Assembly (NCBI GenBank): GCA_012961925.1 | Contig: DTYK01000230.1 | Location: forward strand, 797 to 64,796 | Origin: Candidatus Latescibacterota bacterium | Lineage (GTDB): Bacteria > Latescibacterota > MVCY01 > DTYK01 | Reading direction: 5' to 3' | DNA length: 64,000 nucleotides | Part shown: positions 14,750-63,073 of the stretch, in pieces | Position numbering within the stretch: the first letter of the stretch is position 1 | Layout: each line of letters starts with the position of its first letter | The notes under the pieces: model-generated | Told to the model about the DNA's origin: nothing | Seen by the model: only the letters and a program-made list of their open reading frames with translations | The model's database searches: none | Translations under genes and position numbers: made by a program

Positions 14750-16081
14750 CTAATCAGATCTTTTGCGGAGTCTCGCTGCAAAGGATCCATCACAACCGTG
14801 CTTATGAGGAAAGGTCCTGACAAAACTATCTGCAACTTCTGATGATAGAAATTCCGACGCTTTCTCAAGTTCAAAAGCGGAGTTTCGCATAAGGAAGGCC
14901 TCTATGATCATCTCATTCTCCTGCGGCTCAATTGAACAGGTGCTGTACACTATGACTCCTCCCGCTCTTGTCAACTCTGCCCCCTTTTTTAAAAGAGCAC
15001 TCTGGAGTTGTGTCAATTGATCGATCGTCTCTTCCGCCTTCCAGCGAGCATCGGCCCTCCTGGCAAGAACACCAAGTCCGGAGCAGGGGACATCAACCAG
15101 GACCCTGTCAAAGGGTTGGGCGGCGTATCTTAAAGCGTCCTGCGCTTCTGCATGTATAATGCTTATCCCGAGCCTCCCGGAGTTTTCTTGCAACATCCTA
15201 AGACGACCCTTTTGCTTGTCCAAGGCGACGATCAAACCTATATTTCGCATAAGCTCGGCCACATGGGTCGCCTTCCCTCCTGGTGCGCTGCACACATCAA
15301 GAATCCTCTCGCCCGGATGCGGGTCCAGAAGGATACTTACCAGTCCGGCACTTGGATCCTGCACCTGAAGCCAGCCATCGGCAAAGGCCGTGGTCTCAAA
15401 CAGACCCTCCGCACACTCAAGGTCAAGGAAGTTAGAGACAAGTTTGTTCGGCTGTGCTACAATCCCGGCCTTGCTTAGCTCCTTCATCAACCTTTCAGGG
15501 GTAGTTTTCAGGGAGTTGGTCCTTATTGAAACCTTCGGAGAGAGATTGTTTGCCTTGCAAAGCTGGGCAGTCTCCTCAAACCCCCATCGTTTGATCCAGC
15601 GTTCTACCATCCATTCCGGATGGGAATAAAAAACAGACAGGTATGCCACCGGATCTCTGTCCCTATCAGGGTAACTGATATTGCCCTTTTCCCTGACGAG
15701 CGTACGTAGAACAGCATTAACAAGACCGGCCGTTCCGGGATGTCCATATTTGGTGGCCAGATTCACCGATTCATTCACGACAGCCCATGGCGGAACCCTA
15801 TCGAGGAAGAGGATCTGATAAGCCCCCAGACGAAGGATGTTCCGTATCCAGGCGGTGAGATCTTCCAGGTCCTTATGGACAAATTTCCGGAGGACCCAGT
15901 CGATCCGCCCTCTCCATCTCGTGGTGCCCAGAACCAGTTCTCGGACGAAGCCTTTGTCCTTCTGGATTAAATTCGCAGAAGAGATGCCATCCAATAGTTT
16001 ATCGGCGTAAGCCCCATCCTCCACTCGTCTTAAAAACCTGAGGGCGATCTCCCTGGCAGTTAGTGTAGTATAAGCAGACAT
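14750..16081 (-). CDS. rsmB: 16S rRNA (cytosine967-C5)-methyltransferase RsmB/Sun
   Basis: NusB-like N-terminal domain plus a SAM-dependent methyltransferase domain with the catalytic Cys region (DVPCSGLGV..). Confidence 0.85.
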   Translation of the reverse strand: MSAYTTLTAREIALRFLRRVEDGAYADKLLDGISSANLIQKDKGFVRELVLGTTRWRGRIDWVLRKFVHKDLEDLTAWIRNILRLGAYQILFLDRVPPWAVVNESVNLATKYGHPGTAGLVNAVLRTLVREKGNISYPDRDRDPVAYLSVFYSHPEWMVERWIKRWGFEETAQLCKANNLSPKVSIRTNSLKTTPERLMKELSKAGIVAQPNKLVSNFLDLECAEGLFETTAFADGWLQVQDPSAGLVSILLDPHPGERILDVCSAPGGKATHVAELMRNIGLIVALDKQKGRLRMLQENSGRLGISIIHAEAQDALRYAAQPFDRVLVDVPCSGLGVLARRADARWKAEETIDQLTQLQSALLKKGAELTRAGGVIVYSTCSIEPQENEMIIEAFLMRNSAFELEKASEFLSSEVADSFVRTFPHKHGCDGSFAARLRKRSD

Positions 16082-16088
16082 GGCGCTC

Positions 16089-16131
16089 AGATTCGCTTTT
16101 TCAGTGTTCAGTTTCAGGTGTCCGGATTCAG
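16089..16131. repeat. copy 1 of the ~40-nt conserved motif (GATTCGCTTTTTCAGTGTTCAGTTTCAGG-TGTCCGGATTCAG) between the FGGY kinase and rsmB
   Basis: Aligns with the copies at 44388-44426 and 59052-59092. Confidence 0.5.
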
Positions 16132-24899: not shown

Positions 24900-24962
24900 C
24901 GTCGCCCTTTAAACCTCATAGTAAAAAGAACCGACAGTCCGAAGCCTTTGCCCCAACCGTCT

Positions 24963-25070
24963 TCGGCTCGCCCCAAGAGTTAACGCTTTAGCATTTCAGC
25001 CTGAGTAAGACAAACCGCTGAAGTCTATCCGTGAATGAAAGCCCAAAGGCTGAACTCCGACTTGCCTTCC
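24963..25070. repeat. copy A of a ~110-nt conserved intergenic element (pheS-pheT spacer)
   Basis: Shares (A/G)GAGTTAA(C/T)GCTTTAGCATTTCA...GAC...ATGAAAG...AACTCC(G/A)ACT(T/C)GCC with copies at 38329-38440 and 44468-44580; compensatory arm changes (see findings). Confidence 0.7.
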
Positions 25071-38328: not shown

Positions 38329-38440
38329 AGCTTCGCTCAAGGAGTTTAATGCTTTAGTATTTCATCTTGGGCAAGACAAACCGTTGAGTCTGTACATCTG
38401 AGGATGAAAGTCTAAAGACTTAACTCCGGCTCCATGCGCT
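38329..38440. repeat. copy B of the ~110-nt conserved intergenic element (aminotransferase-hisG spacer)
   Basis: Same element as copy A, with terminal GGAGTT...AACTCC arms and inner TTTCATC/GATGAAA arms. Confidence 0.7.
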
Positions 38441-38463
38441 TTTCAATCCAAACCCGTGGTTCT

Positions 38464-44325: not shown

Positions 44326-44346
44326 CCACAGATTAACCCAGATTCG
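44326..44346. repeat. CACAGATTA-type repeat upstream of the polyol dehydrogenase gene
   Basis: ACCACAGATTAACCCAGATTCGG, related to 34848-34880. Confidence 0.45.
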
Positions 44347-44387
44347 GAAAACACCGAACAAACGCCGAAAACAACTGACCTAACTTC

Positions 44388-44426
44388 TTCGAATGTTTTT
44401 CAGTGTTCAATTTCCCGGATTTAGCA
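44388..44426. repeat. copy 2 of a ~40-nt conserved motif (CGAATG-TTTTTCAGTGTTCAATTTCC-CGGATTTAG)
   Basis: Aligns with 16089-16131 and 59052-59092. Confidence 0.5.
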
Positions 44427-44431
44427 CTTTC

Positions 44432-44452
44432 GGTCGGGGGTAAACCCCGACC
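44432..44452. promoter_or_regulatory. GC-rich hairpin GGTCGGGG-GTAAA-CCCCGACC
   Basis: Perfect 8-bp stem read directly, in the rplS-dehydrogenase spacer between the two repeat elements. Confidence 0.35.
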
Positions 44453-44467
44453 CTACCTCCGTTTTCA

Positions 44468-44580
44468 GCTCACCCCAGGAGTTAATGCTTTAGCATTTCA
44501 TCCTATGTAAGACGTACCCCCGAGCCTGTAGAGCGGGGGATGAAAGGCTGAAGTTTGAACTCCAACTCGCCCTCCCTTTC
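44468..44580. repeat. copy C of the ~110-nt conserved intergenic element (rplS-dehydrogenase spacer)
   Basis: Same conserved termini as copies A and B. The variable core forms its own hairpin, CCCCCG-agcctgtagag-CGGGGG. Confidence 0.7.
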
Positions 44581-44693
44581 GATCAGAGGCGCCTGAAAAC
44601 GGCCGTTCCGTTTGCCGGACGGTCATAACGGCTCAGGCTTAAGTGCACCTCATCCTCCACTACGCCAAACGGGTACAGCACCTTTTGAGGTAG

Positions 44694-48405: not shown

Positions 48406-48522
48406 ATCTCAGCCTCTCAAATTCAATACATAAAATCCTAAACAGCACCAAAATTCTATATTCAGATGTTCAAAACTGTGGGGGCCGAAGGTTCTTTGTC
48501 ACCATCACAGAAGGTTCGCGGG

Positions 48523-58956: not shown

Positions 58957-58985
58957 TTGACCGGTGGCCACTTTTCTCTTATATT
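58957..58985 (+). promoter_or_regulatory. sigma70-like promoter of the ABC transporter operon (-35 TTGACC, 17-bp spacer, -10 TATATT)
   Basis: TTGACC-ggtggccacttttctct-TATATT, about 120 nt upstream of the substrate-binding-protein start. Confidence 0.45.
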
Positions 58986-59051
58986 ACATAGGGCTGTGCC
59001 TTGCACGTAGATTCCTTGTAGTATAAACGCTCGAAATAAAACTGATTCGAA

Positions 59052-59092
59052 AGATTCGGCTTCTTTCAGTGTTAATCTTCCAGGATTTGGGC
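59052..59092. repeat. copy 3 of the ~40-nt conserved motif (GATTCGGCTTCTTTCAGTGTTAATCTTCC-AGGATTTGG) in the ABC-operon leader
   Basis: Aligns with 16089-16131 and 44388-44426. Confidence 0.5.
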
Positions 59093-59108: not shown

Positions 59109-60872
59109 ATGAAAGTAGAGAGCTTAACCAGAATAGTGACCGTCTTTATGCTGACAACATTGCCCTCCCTGGCGCTTTGTGATCTAACCACGCCGCAAAG
59201 TGGAGAGCCGGTCAGAAAACTCCCGCACGGGATGTCTTCGGTATGGAGGGCATACTTCGAAAATGTTGACTTCGACGGTGACGGGATAAGGTATATATAC
59301 GACAGATATCTCGGCAGAAACGATAAAGAGGTGGACTTCAAGGCGAAGCTGGGCGGACGACTGAGGGGGATGAGCTCCGAACTCTCCACCGTAGACCCGA
59401 TACAGGCCACGGACACGGCGTCCAGCGCAATAGTAAACAAGTACCTGGATGGGCTGGTACAGTTCGTGCCATACTCCACAGAGATAATGCCAAACCTGGC
59501 CCTGGCATGGGAGATCTCGGAGGATGCACGGATCTACACCTTCTACCTGAGAAGGGATGTGAGGTTCCATAATGGAGCAAAGTTCACGGCTGATGACTTC
59601 ATCTTCTCTTATAACAGGCTCATAAACCCCGTCTATGCTTCTCCAAGGATAAGCTTTGCTACGGATTTCATAAAACGGGTTGAGAAGATAGGCGATTACA
59701 CCGTCAGGATAACACTGAAAAAACCCTTTACTCCGTTTCTCAAGCTTCTGACCTACGACTCCTTCTCCGTATTACCGAGGGGATATGTCTCTGCAAAAGA
59801 GACCGTCACCCAGGAGAAGGCAGAATATAAATGGTACGACCACCCCGTTGGGACCGGCCCCTTCAAGGTGAAGGAATACGTCCCTGGCGACCACATAACC
59901 CTTGAAGCCTACGATGATTACCACGAGGGAAGACCATACCTGGATGAGTGGTACGTGAGATTTGTGGAGGAGGAGGACACGATCATCCAAGCCTTTAAGG
60001 CCGGGCAGATCGACGTGACTGGCGTCCCATCAAGGTACTGGGAGGAGTTCAGGGAGAGATACAAGGATGTGATGATAACCAAACCCCAACTGTCAACCTT
60101 CTGGCTAATCCTTAACTGCGGAGAATGGCCGTTCGAAAACAGGAAGATAAGACAGGCCTTTGCATACGCGATGGACAGGACAGGGGTTATCAACACGATA
60201 TTCAAGGGTAGACATATACCCGCCCATGGGGTCCTCCCTCCGGGGTTGTTCGGGTTCTCACAGGAATTGTACGACCACTATGCATATAACTATAACCCGG
60301 GAAAGGCAAGGAGGCTTCTCGATGAAGCCGGGGCTCTGGACACCGATGGGGACGGCATAAGGGAGTATAAGGGTAAACCTCTGAAATTGGAACTCTCCTC
60401 ATACGTGAGCGCTGACTGGAAAGAGGCAGCAAAGACATGGAGGACTAATTTGAAAGAGGTAGGGGTCGAGATAACCTATCAACAATACGACTTTCCTACC
60501 ATCCTGGACATGACCGATAAGGGGACCTTCAAGATGATAACCCTGGGATGGATAAACGACTACCCGGATCCGGAAAACTGGTATATCCTGTTTGAATCGA
60601 AGAACATCCCGGATCCGAATAGCTCCCGATACACAAATCCCGAAGTGGACAGGCTGGTAACCCAATTGAGGATTACACCTGACCCTACAAAGAGAAGGAG
60701 GATAACCTATGAGATTGAGAGGATAATCCAGGCTGATCATCCTCATATCTGGTTCATGCATCCGAGAGGGTCCACGGTTTACCACAAGTGGGTACATGGC
60801 TGGGATTTCGGGCCGATGGGAGGACACCTTGAGAAACGCCTTGATGTCTGGCTCGACAGGGATCACCGATGA
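59109..60872 (+). CDS. ABC transporter substrate-binding lipoprotein, family 5 (peptide/oligopeptide/nickel type)
   Basis: Lipobox signal ..LPSLALC; 587 aa with the SBP_bac_5 architecture. Confidence 0.85.
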   Translation: MKVESLTRIVTVFMLTTLPSLALCDLTTPQSGEPVRKLPHGMSSVWRAYFENVDFDGDGIRYIYDRYLGRNDKEVDFKAKLGGRLRGMSSELSTVDPIQATDTASSAIVNKYLDGLVQFVPYSTEIMPNLALAWEISEDARIYTFYLRRDVRFHNGAKFTADDFIFSYNRLINPVYASPRISFATDFIKRVEKIGDYTVRITLKKPFTPFLKLLTYDSFSVLPRGYVSAKETVTQEKAEYKWYDHPVGTGPFKVKEYVPGDHITLEAYDDYHEGRPYLDEWYVRFVEEEDTIIQAFKAGQIDVTGVPSRYWEEFRERYKDVMITKPQLSTFWLILNCGEWPFENRKIRQAFAYAMDRTGVINTIFKGRHIPAHGVLPPGLFGFSQELYDHYAYNYNPGKARRLLDEAGALDTDGDGIREYKGKPLKLELSSYVSADWKEAAKTWRTNLKEVGVEITYQQYDFPTILDMTDKGTFKMITLGWINDYPDPENWYILFESKNIPDPNSSRYTNPEVDRLVTQLRITPDPTKRRRITYEIERIIQADHPHIWFMHPRGSTVYHKWVHGWDFGPMGGHLEKRLDVWLDRDHR

Positions 60873-60944
60873 ATTGGTGACCCTTACAAGGTAAGATATT
60901 AAAATCCATGTCAAGTTTTGAAGGGAGGAGAGTGAAGTAAGAAG

Positions 60945-61904
60945 ATGAGAGAATACATAGTCAAGAAGCTGGCCATAGCCGTGATTGTGCTGATAGGGGT
61001 ATACACCATAACGTTCGTTCTGACGTTTATGATGCCGGGAGATCCGGCGAGGGTCTCCATGGGGCAGTTCGGTAATCCGGAAACGGTGAAACTGATAAGA
61101 CAAAGGTGGGGACTGGATAGGCCCCGATATGTCCAGTACATCAAATACGCCGGATCTTTTCTGAAGGGGGAGATGGGGATGTCCTTCAGATACGACAGGC
61201 CAGTATTGGACGTCATCAAATACAGGTTCCCACGATCTGCCTACCTCGGCCTGTGGGGCATACTCTTCTCCATTGTGCTATCCATACCCCTGGGAATTGT
61301 GGCTGCCTGTAAACAGAACACGCCTCTCGACAATGCCGCCGTTCTCTTTTCGCAAATAGGACGTTCCCTGCCGAGCTTCTGGCTGGGAATGATGCTCATC
61401 GCCATGGTGGCTGTGGGTCTGGGGTGGGTCAAGGTCGTCCCGGAGGTGGAACCGGGCCGATTGTGGTCATTCTCAGGATTCTTCACAAGTCTGGATGACT
61501 ACATTCTGCCTGTAATCACCCTGGGTACGGGGCTGATGGCAACGACCACCCGGATGACGAGGTCCAGCATGCTCGAGGTGATAAGGGAGGACTATATAAC
61601 CCTCGCCAGGGCGAAGGGACTTCCGGAAAGAGTGGTTATCCTCAAGCATGCGCTCAGGAACGCACTGATCCCCGTTGTAACCCTGATAGGGATGCAATTT
61701 CTGTTAATCGTAGGGGGAGTCATAATAACGGAGACAGTTTTCGGCATCAATGGGATCGGGAGATTATACGTAACATCCATACAGATGAGAGACTATCCCG
61801 TTGTGATAGCTTTAACCCTGATATACGCCTTCGGAGTTGTCCTGATAAACCTGCTTGTCGATCTGACATATGGGTGGATAGATCCAAGGGTCAGGTTAAG
61901 GTGA
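60945..61904 (+). CDS. ABC transporter permease (DppB/OppB-like)
   Basis: 319 aa, 6 transmembrane helices, EAA-type loop (..ITLARAKGLPERVVILKHALRNA..). Confidence 0.85.
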   Translation: MREYIVKKLAIAVIVLIGVYTITFVLTFMMPGDPARVSMGQFGNPETVKLIRQRWGLDRPRYVQYIKYAGSFLKGEMGMSFRYDRPVLDVIKYRFPRSAYLGLWGILFSIVLSIPLGIVAACKQNTPLDNAAVLFSQIGRSLPSFWLGMMLIAMVAVGLGWVKVVPEVEPGRLWSFSGFFTSLDDYILPVITLGTGLMATTTRMTRSSMLEVIREDYITLARAKGLPERVVILKHALRNALIPVVTLIGMQFLLIVGGVIITETVFGINGIGRLYVTSIQMRDYPVVIALTLIYAFGVVLINLLVDLTYGWIDPRVRLR

Positions 61905-61909
61905 TCGAT

Positions 61910-63073
61910 ATGGATGAACGGTTCAAGGGGCGGTTCATGGATACATTTGTGTGGGAAGAGAAGAAAGCAGAAAATAGGAAGATCCGTGTGGTTTTAGCCA
62001 TCACCGTCATAGGGCTGGTCCTGATCAAGATCCTGTTTATCAGTAGAGATACGATTCCCCAATGGGGGCTCAGGTTAGGCGTAGTTGGCCTCTACCTTGG
62101 GGTCTGGTATCTCTTCCTGGAGCGGATGTATAGATGGTATGTCAGGGTCAACTATGACAAACGCGCCAATCCAATAGCCAGGTTCTTTTTGAGGTTTTAC
62201 AGAAACAAACTGGCTACTTTGGGGTTTTTCATCGTGCTCACCCTTGTGGTGGTTGCAGTATTCGCCCCAGAGATCGCAAAGTACCCAGGGGAATACAGGG
62301 CTGAATGGAAAGAGTATGCCCTGATGCCCCCTTCAAGGGAACATCCATTAGGCACTGTACCGTCCGGCGAAGACCTGTTCTCCCTGATCTGCTATGGTAC
62401 CAGGATCTCCGTCACCTTAGGGATCTCTGTGGTATCCCTGGGCGCAGCGATCGGGATTGCCCTGGGCGTTACCGCTGGATATTACGGTGGCAAGGTGGAT
62501 AAGTTAATCAATTATGTGACCGATGTGGTCATGAGTTTTCCCTTCCTGGTCCTGATCCTGGTCATTGTCGGTGCGCTACGGTCAAATCCCCAGATAAATG
62601 AAAGGTTAATCGAGGTCGGAAAGACTGTCGGAGTGGACGCCCATCTGCTCATGGTCTTCCTCGCCCTCTCCTTTCTTGGCTGGACAGGCACTTTCAGGAT
62701 CGTGAGGGGGCAGGTCCTGAGCATAAGGGAAAAGGATTATGTTGCAGCCGCGAAGGCTATCGGGGCCACCTCAAGGAGGATTATCTTTCGCCATATAGCG
62801 ATAAACACCCTGGCCCCCGTGATCGTCGTGATGACGCTTGGTATCGGAGGGGTAATCCTCACGGAAGCAGCACTTTCATATTTAGGATTTGGGGCCAGCG
62901 TCACCACACCCTCGTGGGGCAGACTCCTGTCCGAAGCCAATGCCTATGTTTCACAGCTCAAATACATACACCTTGTGCTCTTTCCAGGGCTGGCGATCTT
63001 CTTGGCAATCCTGGGATTCACCACCATGGGGGATGGGGTGAGGGACGCCATAGACCCACGACTGAAGTTGTAA
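61910..63073 (+). CDS. ABC transporter permease (DppC/OppC-like) with ~90-aa N-terminal extension carrying two extra predicted TM helices
   Basis: Canonical OppC core from ..RFFLRFYRNKLATLGFFIVL.. onward. ATG at 61910 lies 5 nt after the upstream stop, with an AGGTGA Shine-Dalgarno; the ORF-track GTG at 61874 is less likely. Confidence 0.8.
   Translation: MDERFKGRFMDTFVWEEKKAENRKIRVVLAITVIGLVLIKILFISRDTIPQWGLRLGVVGLYLGVWYLFLERMYRWYVRVNYDKRANPIARFFLRFYRNKLATLGFFIVLTLVVVAVFAPEIAKYPGEYRAEWKEYALMPPSREHPLGTVPSGEDLFSLICYGTRISVTLGISVVSLGAAIGIALGVTAGYYGGKVDKLINYVTDVVMSFPFLVLILVIVGALRSNPQINERLIEVGKTVGVDAHLLMVFLALSFLGWTGTFRIVRGQVLSIREKDYVAAAKAIGATSRRIIFRHIAINTLAPVIVVMTLGIGGVILTEAALSYLGFGASVTTPSWGRLLSEANAYVSQLKYIHLVLFPGLAIFLAILGFTTMGDGVRDAIDPRLKL

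Follow-up and report, generated by a model that had tools for sequence, protein, structure and literature searches.

What kind of element is the ~40-nt motif that recurs in three gaps between the genes of a Latescibacterota genome? The window considered here, meaning the whole stretch of DNA that was analysed, is 64,000 nucleotides long and comes from a Candidatus Latescibacterota bacterium (contig DTYK01000230.1). The three stretches recorded by a first-pass annotation are present where it placed them, on the plus strand, at 16090–16131 (site 1), 44388–44425 (site 2) and 59053–59091 (site 3). All are intergenic, as that annotation stated, and intergenic DNA accounts for ~6.6% of the window. 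The GATTCG with which the three had been aligned is found at site 1; site 2 reads CTTCGAATG instead. Judged from the alignments, the 40-nt motif is one arm of an imperfect inverted-repeat element, namely the 'long' arm, which is the better conserved. The whole unit is ~90–190 nt in size, two to four times longer than described before. It is non-coding and there is no open reading frame inside. The parts found in the window are as follows.

16090..16131, plus strand: site 1, solo long arm (leave-one-out E = 0.038)
44337..44425, no strand assigned: site 2, whole element (short arm, ~15-nt spacer, long arm)
44337..44372, minus strand: site 2, short partner arm, inverted (profile E = 6e-4; foreign-only profile E = 0.003)
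44388..44425, plus strand: site 2, long arm (leave-one-out E = 7e-5)
59006..59091, no strand assigned: site 3, whole element (left-half homology to site 2)
59006..59046, minus strand: site 3, degenerate partner arm (p = 0.003 and p = 0.007; weak)
59053..59091, plus strand: site 3, long arm (leave-one-out E = 0.0057)

The 12-mer TTTCAGTGTTCA occurs exactly at 16099 and 44398, and with one mismatch at 59064. From base composition, over both strands of the 64 kb, 0.007 exact matches are expected and 2 were observed. Allowing ≤1 mismatch gave 3 matches against 0.26 expected. With ≤2 mismatches the figures were 8 and 4.65. This is no enrichment, and so the signal depends on the three sites alone. 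In pairwise BLAST comparisons within the window, sites 1 and 2 have 18 of 19 bases in common (E = 0.002). In ungapped BLAST, site 3 is tied to the other two through a 10-mer only (E ~2). Each copy was recovered by a leave-one-out profile (E values listed above), the held-out copy being the top window match among sequences left out of that profile.

The profile search also returned a fourth true copy, overlooked by the first-pass annotation, at 44337–44370. It is inverted, on the minus strand (E = 6e-4), and was recovered again by a profile made from foreign copies only (E = 0.003). Searching the whole window with the profile gave no copies beyond the three sites and this inverted one, and there were zero additional copies in ~8 kb to the right of the window. 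The ~72 kb of source genome covered contains three loci and five arms, one arm being weak. A weaker match near 48457 had been annotated too. The letters exist, but no profile search reported them, which places the match at chance level. Separately, the minus strand at 59711–59722, within the coding region of a binding protein, has a 12-nt match to TTTTTCAGTGTT (E = 0.12) that is probably due to chance.

Eight arms, from three genomes, form one alignable family. The order of the element is short arm, variable spacer of ~10–115 nt and long arm. Read from the inside to the outside, the arm consensus is TTCRGTG, 3–4 nt, TTCRGTG, 3–16 nt and a terminal box, TCCGRRTYTGGG. A third, degenerate TTCRGTG heptad is present in some arms. 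The heptads are spaced 10 or 11 nt apart, start to start, in seven of the eight arms, which is about one helical turn. Outer boundaries of the arms are sharply defined. There are two types of arm: the long-arm consensus is TTCAGTG-TT(C/A)AATT-TCCGGATTTRGG and the short-arm consensus is TTCGGTG-YTT-TCCGARTCTGGG. The difference is consistent at all three loci with clear pairs (site 2 and two foreign loci, L001 and L003, introduced below). Since it is kept in every clear pair, the element has a polarity and appears to be inherited as one unit.

At site 2 the long arm reads TTCGAATG-TTT-TTCAGTG-TTCAATTTC-CCGGATTTAGC, and the short arm, on the minus strand, reads TTTTCGGCG-TTTG-TTCGGTG-TTT-TCCGAATCTGGG. 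The site 3 long arm has the letters GATTCGGCT-TCT-TTCAGTG-TTAATCTTC-CAGGATTTGGG. Its partner (CGTAGATTCC...AAACGCTCGAAATAAAACTGA on the plus strand) has homology with the left half of site 2, and is so degenerate that the arm profile misses it. Homology between sites 2 and 3 extends along the whole ~90 nt; that of their left halves, outside the annotated motif, has p = 0.007 against shuffles. The long arms in the window are ~60–75% identical to each other in alignments.

Site 1 (GATTCGC-TTT-TTCAGTG-TTCAGTTTCAGGTG-TCCGGATTCAG) has additional TTCAG units, which follow the second heptad and precede the terminal box. The position where a partner arm would lie is occupied by the first codons of rsmB. 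A 10-mer, TGTAGTATAA, was seen at 16063–16072 and 59017–59026, 36 and 47 nt to the left of the core of sites 1 and 3, respectively. Its occurrence to the left of both sites has an uncorrected p of 0.013. We treat it as probably a chance match, because at site 1 it falls within rsmB codons 4–7. It might otherwise hint that a former left arm gave rise to the first codons of rsmB.

We next asked where else the element occurs. A pattern derived from the three copies was used to scan genomes (one genome per species), metagenomes and viral contigs; the source genome is outside these collections. There were nine genome matches, nine metagenome matches and no viral contig matches. Seven of the nine genome matches were scattered by chance in unrelated taxa. 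The other two look homologous well past the pattern, and represent the same two-arm element in a KSB1 MAG (L001) and in a second Latescibacterota MAG (L003). A further match, L020, is the same locus as L001. All remaining matches were rejected as chance-like, in unrelated taxa or in coding sequence. Across the genome, metagenome and viral scans, the two foreign genomes have one locus each. A BLAST search of a plasmid collection with the site 2 element gave E ~3 matches only, and a literature search on Latescibacteria and inverted repeats turned up nothing relevant. The window DNA itself is present at 99.94% identity in several metagenome assemblies, including contigs of 127 kb and 211 kb.

In the foreign genomes the flanks outside the search pattern are conserved. 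Both L001 and L003 have a second, inverted copy 65–115 nt from the first; the inverted pair in L003 consists of 23-nt arms, 87% complementary, that are 115 nt apart. The short arms of site 2 and L001 are identical at 22 of 25 bases (~88%). The site 2 and L003 long arms are ~89% identical, by eye, in the alignment. Copies in the window resemble each other no more than do copies from different phyla. The spacers are completely different between genomes.

The distribution is patchy. RsmB of the window organism is 47–62% identical to RsmB of other Latescibacterota and KSB1 bacteria. No motif was found in ~85 kb, on seven contigs, around the genes for RsmB relatives, and the upstream neighbours differ in relatives with 55–62% identity. 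Nor was there a motif upstream of the gene for the closest homologue of the binding protein encoded next to site 3 (65% identity, on a contig of 37% GC). In total, the element is absent from ~95 kb of other related contigs.

Two KSB1 strains allowed a closer comparison. Between L001 and its counterpart L028 there are no substitutions in 147 nt of element. Conversely, 37 of 1020 sites (3.6%) differ in the flanking genes, and the contrast with the element has P ~0.005. The two elements differ inside by exactly one 7-nt unit, a slippage indel. The interior of L001 (5627–5703) has tandem TGATTGC units on one side and AACAATT/AGCAATT units on the other, and the two sides make up an inner imperfect palindrome.

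The first-pass annotation placed the motif immediately upstream of start codons. This is so at sites 1 and 3, and not at site 2, where the alcohol-dehydrogenase ATG is 108 nt away and the partner arm intervenes. Site 1 is flanked by the stop codon of an FGGY kinase gene (16203) and the rsmB ATG (16081), both on the minus strand, and is therefore downstream of the kinase. Its GATTCG begins 8 nt from the rsmB start codon (16079–16081, minus strand). Between the element and this ATG, at 16082–16089, there is no recognisable Shine-Dalgarno sequence (the minus strand reads GCGAATCTGAGCGCC, then ATG). Elsewhere in the window, glnA (10004) and the binding-protein gene (59109), among others, are preceded by strong GGAGG sites.

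Site 2 is in a 413-nt gap between rplS (stop codon 44694) and a Zn-alcohol-dehydrogenase gene. The outer end of the short arm is 56 nt from the ATG of the latter (44280). The dehydrogenase gene is followed by a second FGGY kinase gene and then by a class II aldolase gene, all on the minus strand. A G+C-rich hairpin at 44432–44452, GGTCGGGG-GTAAA-CCCCGACC, directly adjoins the long arm. Neither strand has a T-run there, and the hairpin was not called in the terminator scan. The same gap contains one copy of a second, unrelated conserved element of ~100 nt, which is probably what the first-pass annotation called its first motif. Three copies of this second element were seen: between pheS and pheT (~24945–25065), upstream of hisG (~38330–38445) and downstream of rplS, adjoining site 2 (~44455–44610). 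Their RNA sense is on the minus strand, which would form a long imperfect hairpin (GGAGTTCAGYCTTTRGRCTTTCATCC ... GGATGAAATGCTAAAGCRTTAACTCC). Of the 36 pairs predicted in the consensus fold, 4 show compensatory changes, and no Rfam family matched.

The GGG end of site 3 is 17 nt ahead of the ATG (59109) of an oligopeptide-type ABC substrate-binding protein gene on the plus strand. A promoter scan located a σ70-like promoter on the 5' side of the site, at 58957–58985 (TTGACC, 17 nt, TATATT). Site 3 lies between this promoter and the ribosome-binding site. Since it is downstream of a good σ70-like promoter, it falls in a predicted 5' UTR, that of a peptide-transporter operon. In the operon region (59109–63073 and beyond; L026 and L027), the closest homologues of the substrate-binding protein are named as Candidatus Methanofastidiosa archaea (52–59% identity). 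One 65%-identical protein, on the 37% GC contig of uncertain origin, is the exception. Because the closest named homologues are archaeal, this suggests that the operon may have been exchanged between archaea and the window bacterium.

When all eight arms were mapped against gene starts, position and orientation relative to the neighbouring genes were mixed. Five arms are directed into the 3' ends of convergent genes. The remaining three are directed at gene starts: the site 2 short arm at the alcohol-dehydrogenase gene (56 nt), site 3 at the binding-protein gene (17 nt) and the L001 long arm at a HAD hydrolase gene (~60 nt). In L003, one arm and the 3' end of an MFS transporter gene overlap, and three open reading frames in the foreign loci extend into an arm.

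Of the two possibilities left by the first-pass annotation, a small dispersed repeat fits best, and a protein-binding site is a live rival. We assign a probability of about 45% to the reading that the element represents a new family of MITE/ERIC-like dispersed repeats in Latescibacterota and KSB1. The class is suggested because the element is short, free of open reading frames and intergenic, with differentiated ~40-nt inverted ends, a variable interior and occasional solo ends. It is also found in either orientation to genes, and is patchy across two candidate phyla. Terminal inverted repeats bounding a short element with no open reading frame are found at site 2, L001 and L003, and weakly at site 3. 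From these properties we infer mobility, and recognition of the arms by a protein. The element would behave as a non-autonomous repeat. Its arms would most likely be recognition ends for a transposase supplied in trans, or for another end-binding protein, and the heptad arrays resemble multiple binding sites for such a protein. Copies would settle into intergenic DNA, their interiors would vary through slippage of short tandem repeats, and a solo arm like that of site 1 would be a deletion remnant. Copies in a UTR or between cistrons, as at all three window sites, may incidentally form a weak mRNA hairpin.

The flanks of the elements were inspected for target duplications. The 4-bp sequence ATAA flanks both ends of the element in L028 only; L001 has ATAG at one end and ATAA at the opposite end. 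The flanks of site 2, site 3 and L003 showed no duplication. No relative yielded an empty site; L001 and L028, the one pair of close strains, each have the element. Neither the annotated parts of the window nor the L001 and L003 open reading frames compared with Pfam yielded a transposase. The divergence of spacers between genomes appears unlike that expected of young MITE families. Similarly, the lack of clustering by genome would be better explained by selection for a functional consensus than by recent spread. Taken with the zero substitutions between KSB1 strains, it would fit a functional consensus at least as well as recent transposition. The apparent constraint in KSB1, and the lack of clustering by genome, are why we keep protein binding and a role at the RNA level as live rivals.

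Known repeat families provide a frame for the dispersed-repeat reading. Like MITEs (e.g. Correia elements of Neisseria), the element is ~90–190 nt long and has no open reading frame, with terminal inverted repeats of ~35–40 nt and defined outer ends. Intergenic location in either orientation, solo ends and presence in unrelated contexts and more than one lineage are further likenesses. As differences from MITEs, no target-site duplication was seen at three of four full copies, and no cognate transposase was found among the open reading frames examined. Its interiors are unconserved between genomes, its observed copy number is low (in ~72 kb) and it does not cluster by genome. The ERIC (or IRU) sequences of Enterobacteria are 127-bp imperfect palindromes, present in transcribed intergenic DNA in both orientations and at modest copy number. 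They are conserved across genera without evidence of current mobility, and internal insertions and deletions give rise to size variants. Our element resembles ERIC, as generally known, in being an imperfect palindrome of ~100 nt in transcribed intergenic regions, in both orientations, with modest observed copy number and size variants, and in being shared between lineages without direct signs of current mobility. The two differ in that they have no sequence similarity and occupy other phyla. Moreover, the arms described here consist of heptads ~10 bp apart and pair poorly as RNA (z ~−1).

REP sequences and BIMEs with their RAYT proteins are similar in being short extragenic repeats, single or in inverted pairs, between genes. 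However, the REP unit is a stem-loop preceded by GTAG, whereas single arms of our element lack self-complementarity. The alignment shows no conserved GTAG, and no RAYT gene was seen. We also compared the arms with ISEcp1, of the IS1380 family, whose ends (IRL CCTAGATTCTACGT; IRR complement CCTAAATTCCACGT) were checked in plasmid pIP843. The arm tips, CCCAGATTC, CCTAAATCC or CCCAAATCC, are near CCTAGATTC and CCTAAATTC. Target duplications in the IS1380 family are 4–5 bp in size, and the L028 element is flanked by a 4-bp repeat. This candidate was rejected: the similarity is limited to the 9-nt tip, and local alignment of the eight arms with IRL and IRR was at chance. The single match with p = 0.014 involves the inner end of a 60-nt end segment, 47 nt from the tip. 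No IS1380-type transposase was found.

The first alternative is that the arms are DNA sites, of the operator or activator kind, for a DNA-binding protein conserved in these lineages. One candidate binder would be a protein of the response-regulator type that reads direct heptads one helical turn apart, and inverted pairs would bind two oligomers. The arms resemble the Pho box, and other operators of the OmpR/PhoB group, in having direct 7-nt units with a period of one helical turn. At least two repeats are present at a 10–11 bp period, and they are followed by the conserved terminal box. Consistent with this alternative, copies from different phyla are as alike as those within the genome, and the KSB1 strains combine an unchanged element with 3.6% divergence of the flanking genes. 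In addition, the window copies are near genes for sugar or polyol use: the FGGY kinase at site 1, the Zn-alcohol-dehydrogenase, FGGY kinase and aldolase genes at site 2, and a cluster with a sugar transporter and an Fe-alcohol dehydrogenase. The position and orientation of the arms are, however, inconsistent for an operator. Site 1 is downstream of the kinase, site 3 is between promoter and ribosome-binding site, and L003 overlaps the MFS gene. The spacing is equally loose, at ~10 to 115 nt between arms and 3 to 16 nt within them. The conserved asymmetry of long and short arms argues for one inherited unit rather than independent sites. No fixed position and orientation was found at orthologous genes; relatives have no motif upstream of rsmB or of the binding-protein gene. 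Unlike the Pho box, the arms have no fixed position relative to a −10 element, and there are 2–3 units per arm, in differentiated inverted pairs. The same differences set the element apart from the cyanobacterial STRR, which it resembles in the tandem intergenic heptamers, varying by slippage, inside L001. Regulation by such sites is an unlikely explanation, if one that deserves to be kept in view.

A related proposal, which we consider doubtful, is that the element is a two-ended docking module with a conserved function, rather than selfish DNA. The phased TTCRGTG heptads and the TCCGGATTTGGG box would be bound by a putative protein common to Latescibacterota and KSB1. Purifying selection might then have kept the module across phyla, and the partner could be a factor of the nucleoid, of transcription or of RNA processing, for instance, at work between cistrons.

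The element could instead act as RNA, either as a UTR or intercistronic hairpin with an effect on the stability or translation of the mRNA, in the manner of ERIC and REP sequences, or as a small RNA gene. All three window copies are probably in transcribed DNA, site 3 being in the predicted 5' UTR, and the promoter scans located no σ70-like promoter in the gaps that contain sites 1 and 2. Long imperfect hairpins are predicted for sites 2 and 3, and in both cases the strand with the better energy is the sense strand of the flanking genes (−25.9 versus −15.5 kcal/mol at site 2 and −19.7 versus −14.2 kcal/mol at site 3). However, these folds were no improvement over shuffles (z −0.2 to −1.2), and site 1, with its single arm, had no fold (z = +0.8 to +0.9). 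Paired arms differ by 5–6 transversions per pair, and by transitions in both directions, which is no compensatory pattern. Neither a promoter nor a terminator accompanies the element consistently. In Rfam searches only a tRNA-Val was over threshold in the window, and permissive thresholds returned nothing at the three sites. An RNA-level function is, on this evidence, rather improbable.

A promoter for an alternative sigma factor, with inverted pairs as divergent promoters, is a very improbable reading. In its favour are the three arms directed at nearby gene starts (56, 17 and ~60 nt), and the failure to find a σ70-like promoter for rsmB or the alcohol-dehydrogenase gene. On the other hand, five of the eight arms point into convergent 3' ends. 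The distance between the two conserved blocks, 3–16 nt in the alignment of eight arms, is a misfit to a fixed −35/−10 geometry. At site 3 just 17 nt, including the Shine-Dalgarno sequence, are left before the ATG. Promoter and terminator scans identified no consensus overlapping the arms. The first-pass annotation had argued against a simple orientation-dependent promoter, and this holds: no σ70-like site overlaps the arms and their orientation to genes is mixed. Its statement that the motif fits neither σ54 nor σ28 also stands, since neither consensus pattern overlaps any arm. An invertible-promoter switch was dropped, as such a promoter would not fit into the short spacers of sites 2 and 3. 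LexA, cre, parS, Noc, Fur and Rex boxes, integron attC sites, the tRNA T-arm and DNA-uptake sequences were dropped by eye.

Finally, chance resemblance among T-rich intergenic sequences is scarcely credible and, for sites 1 and 2, effectively refuted: the unenriched 12-mer at ≤2 mismatches and the 10-mer link of site 3 count in its favour, but the exact 12-mer pair, the leave-one-out recovery of every copy and the conserved foreign flanks speak against it.

To our knowledge, small dispersed repeats have hardly been described in uncultured phyla of the FCB group such as Latescibacterota and KSB1, and we know of no experimental study of regulation in these organisms. The best-supported conclusion is that the element represents a new family within a known class, in a phylum that has been little studied: an ordinary kind of bacterial dispersed repeat, putative as to function. 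A family with a clear consensus and two arm types, present in at least three genomes, could mark horizontal exchange between these lineages. It could also cut annotation noise, because three open reading frames in the foreign loci run into an arm. The family may, furthermore, help to identify the protein by which the arms are recognised. Were the apparent constraint not real, the element would be an ordinary repeat; were it real, this would point to a cis element with a conserved partner protein.
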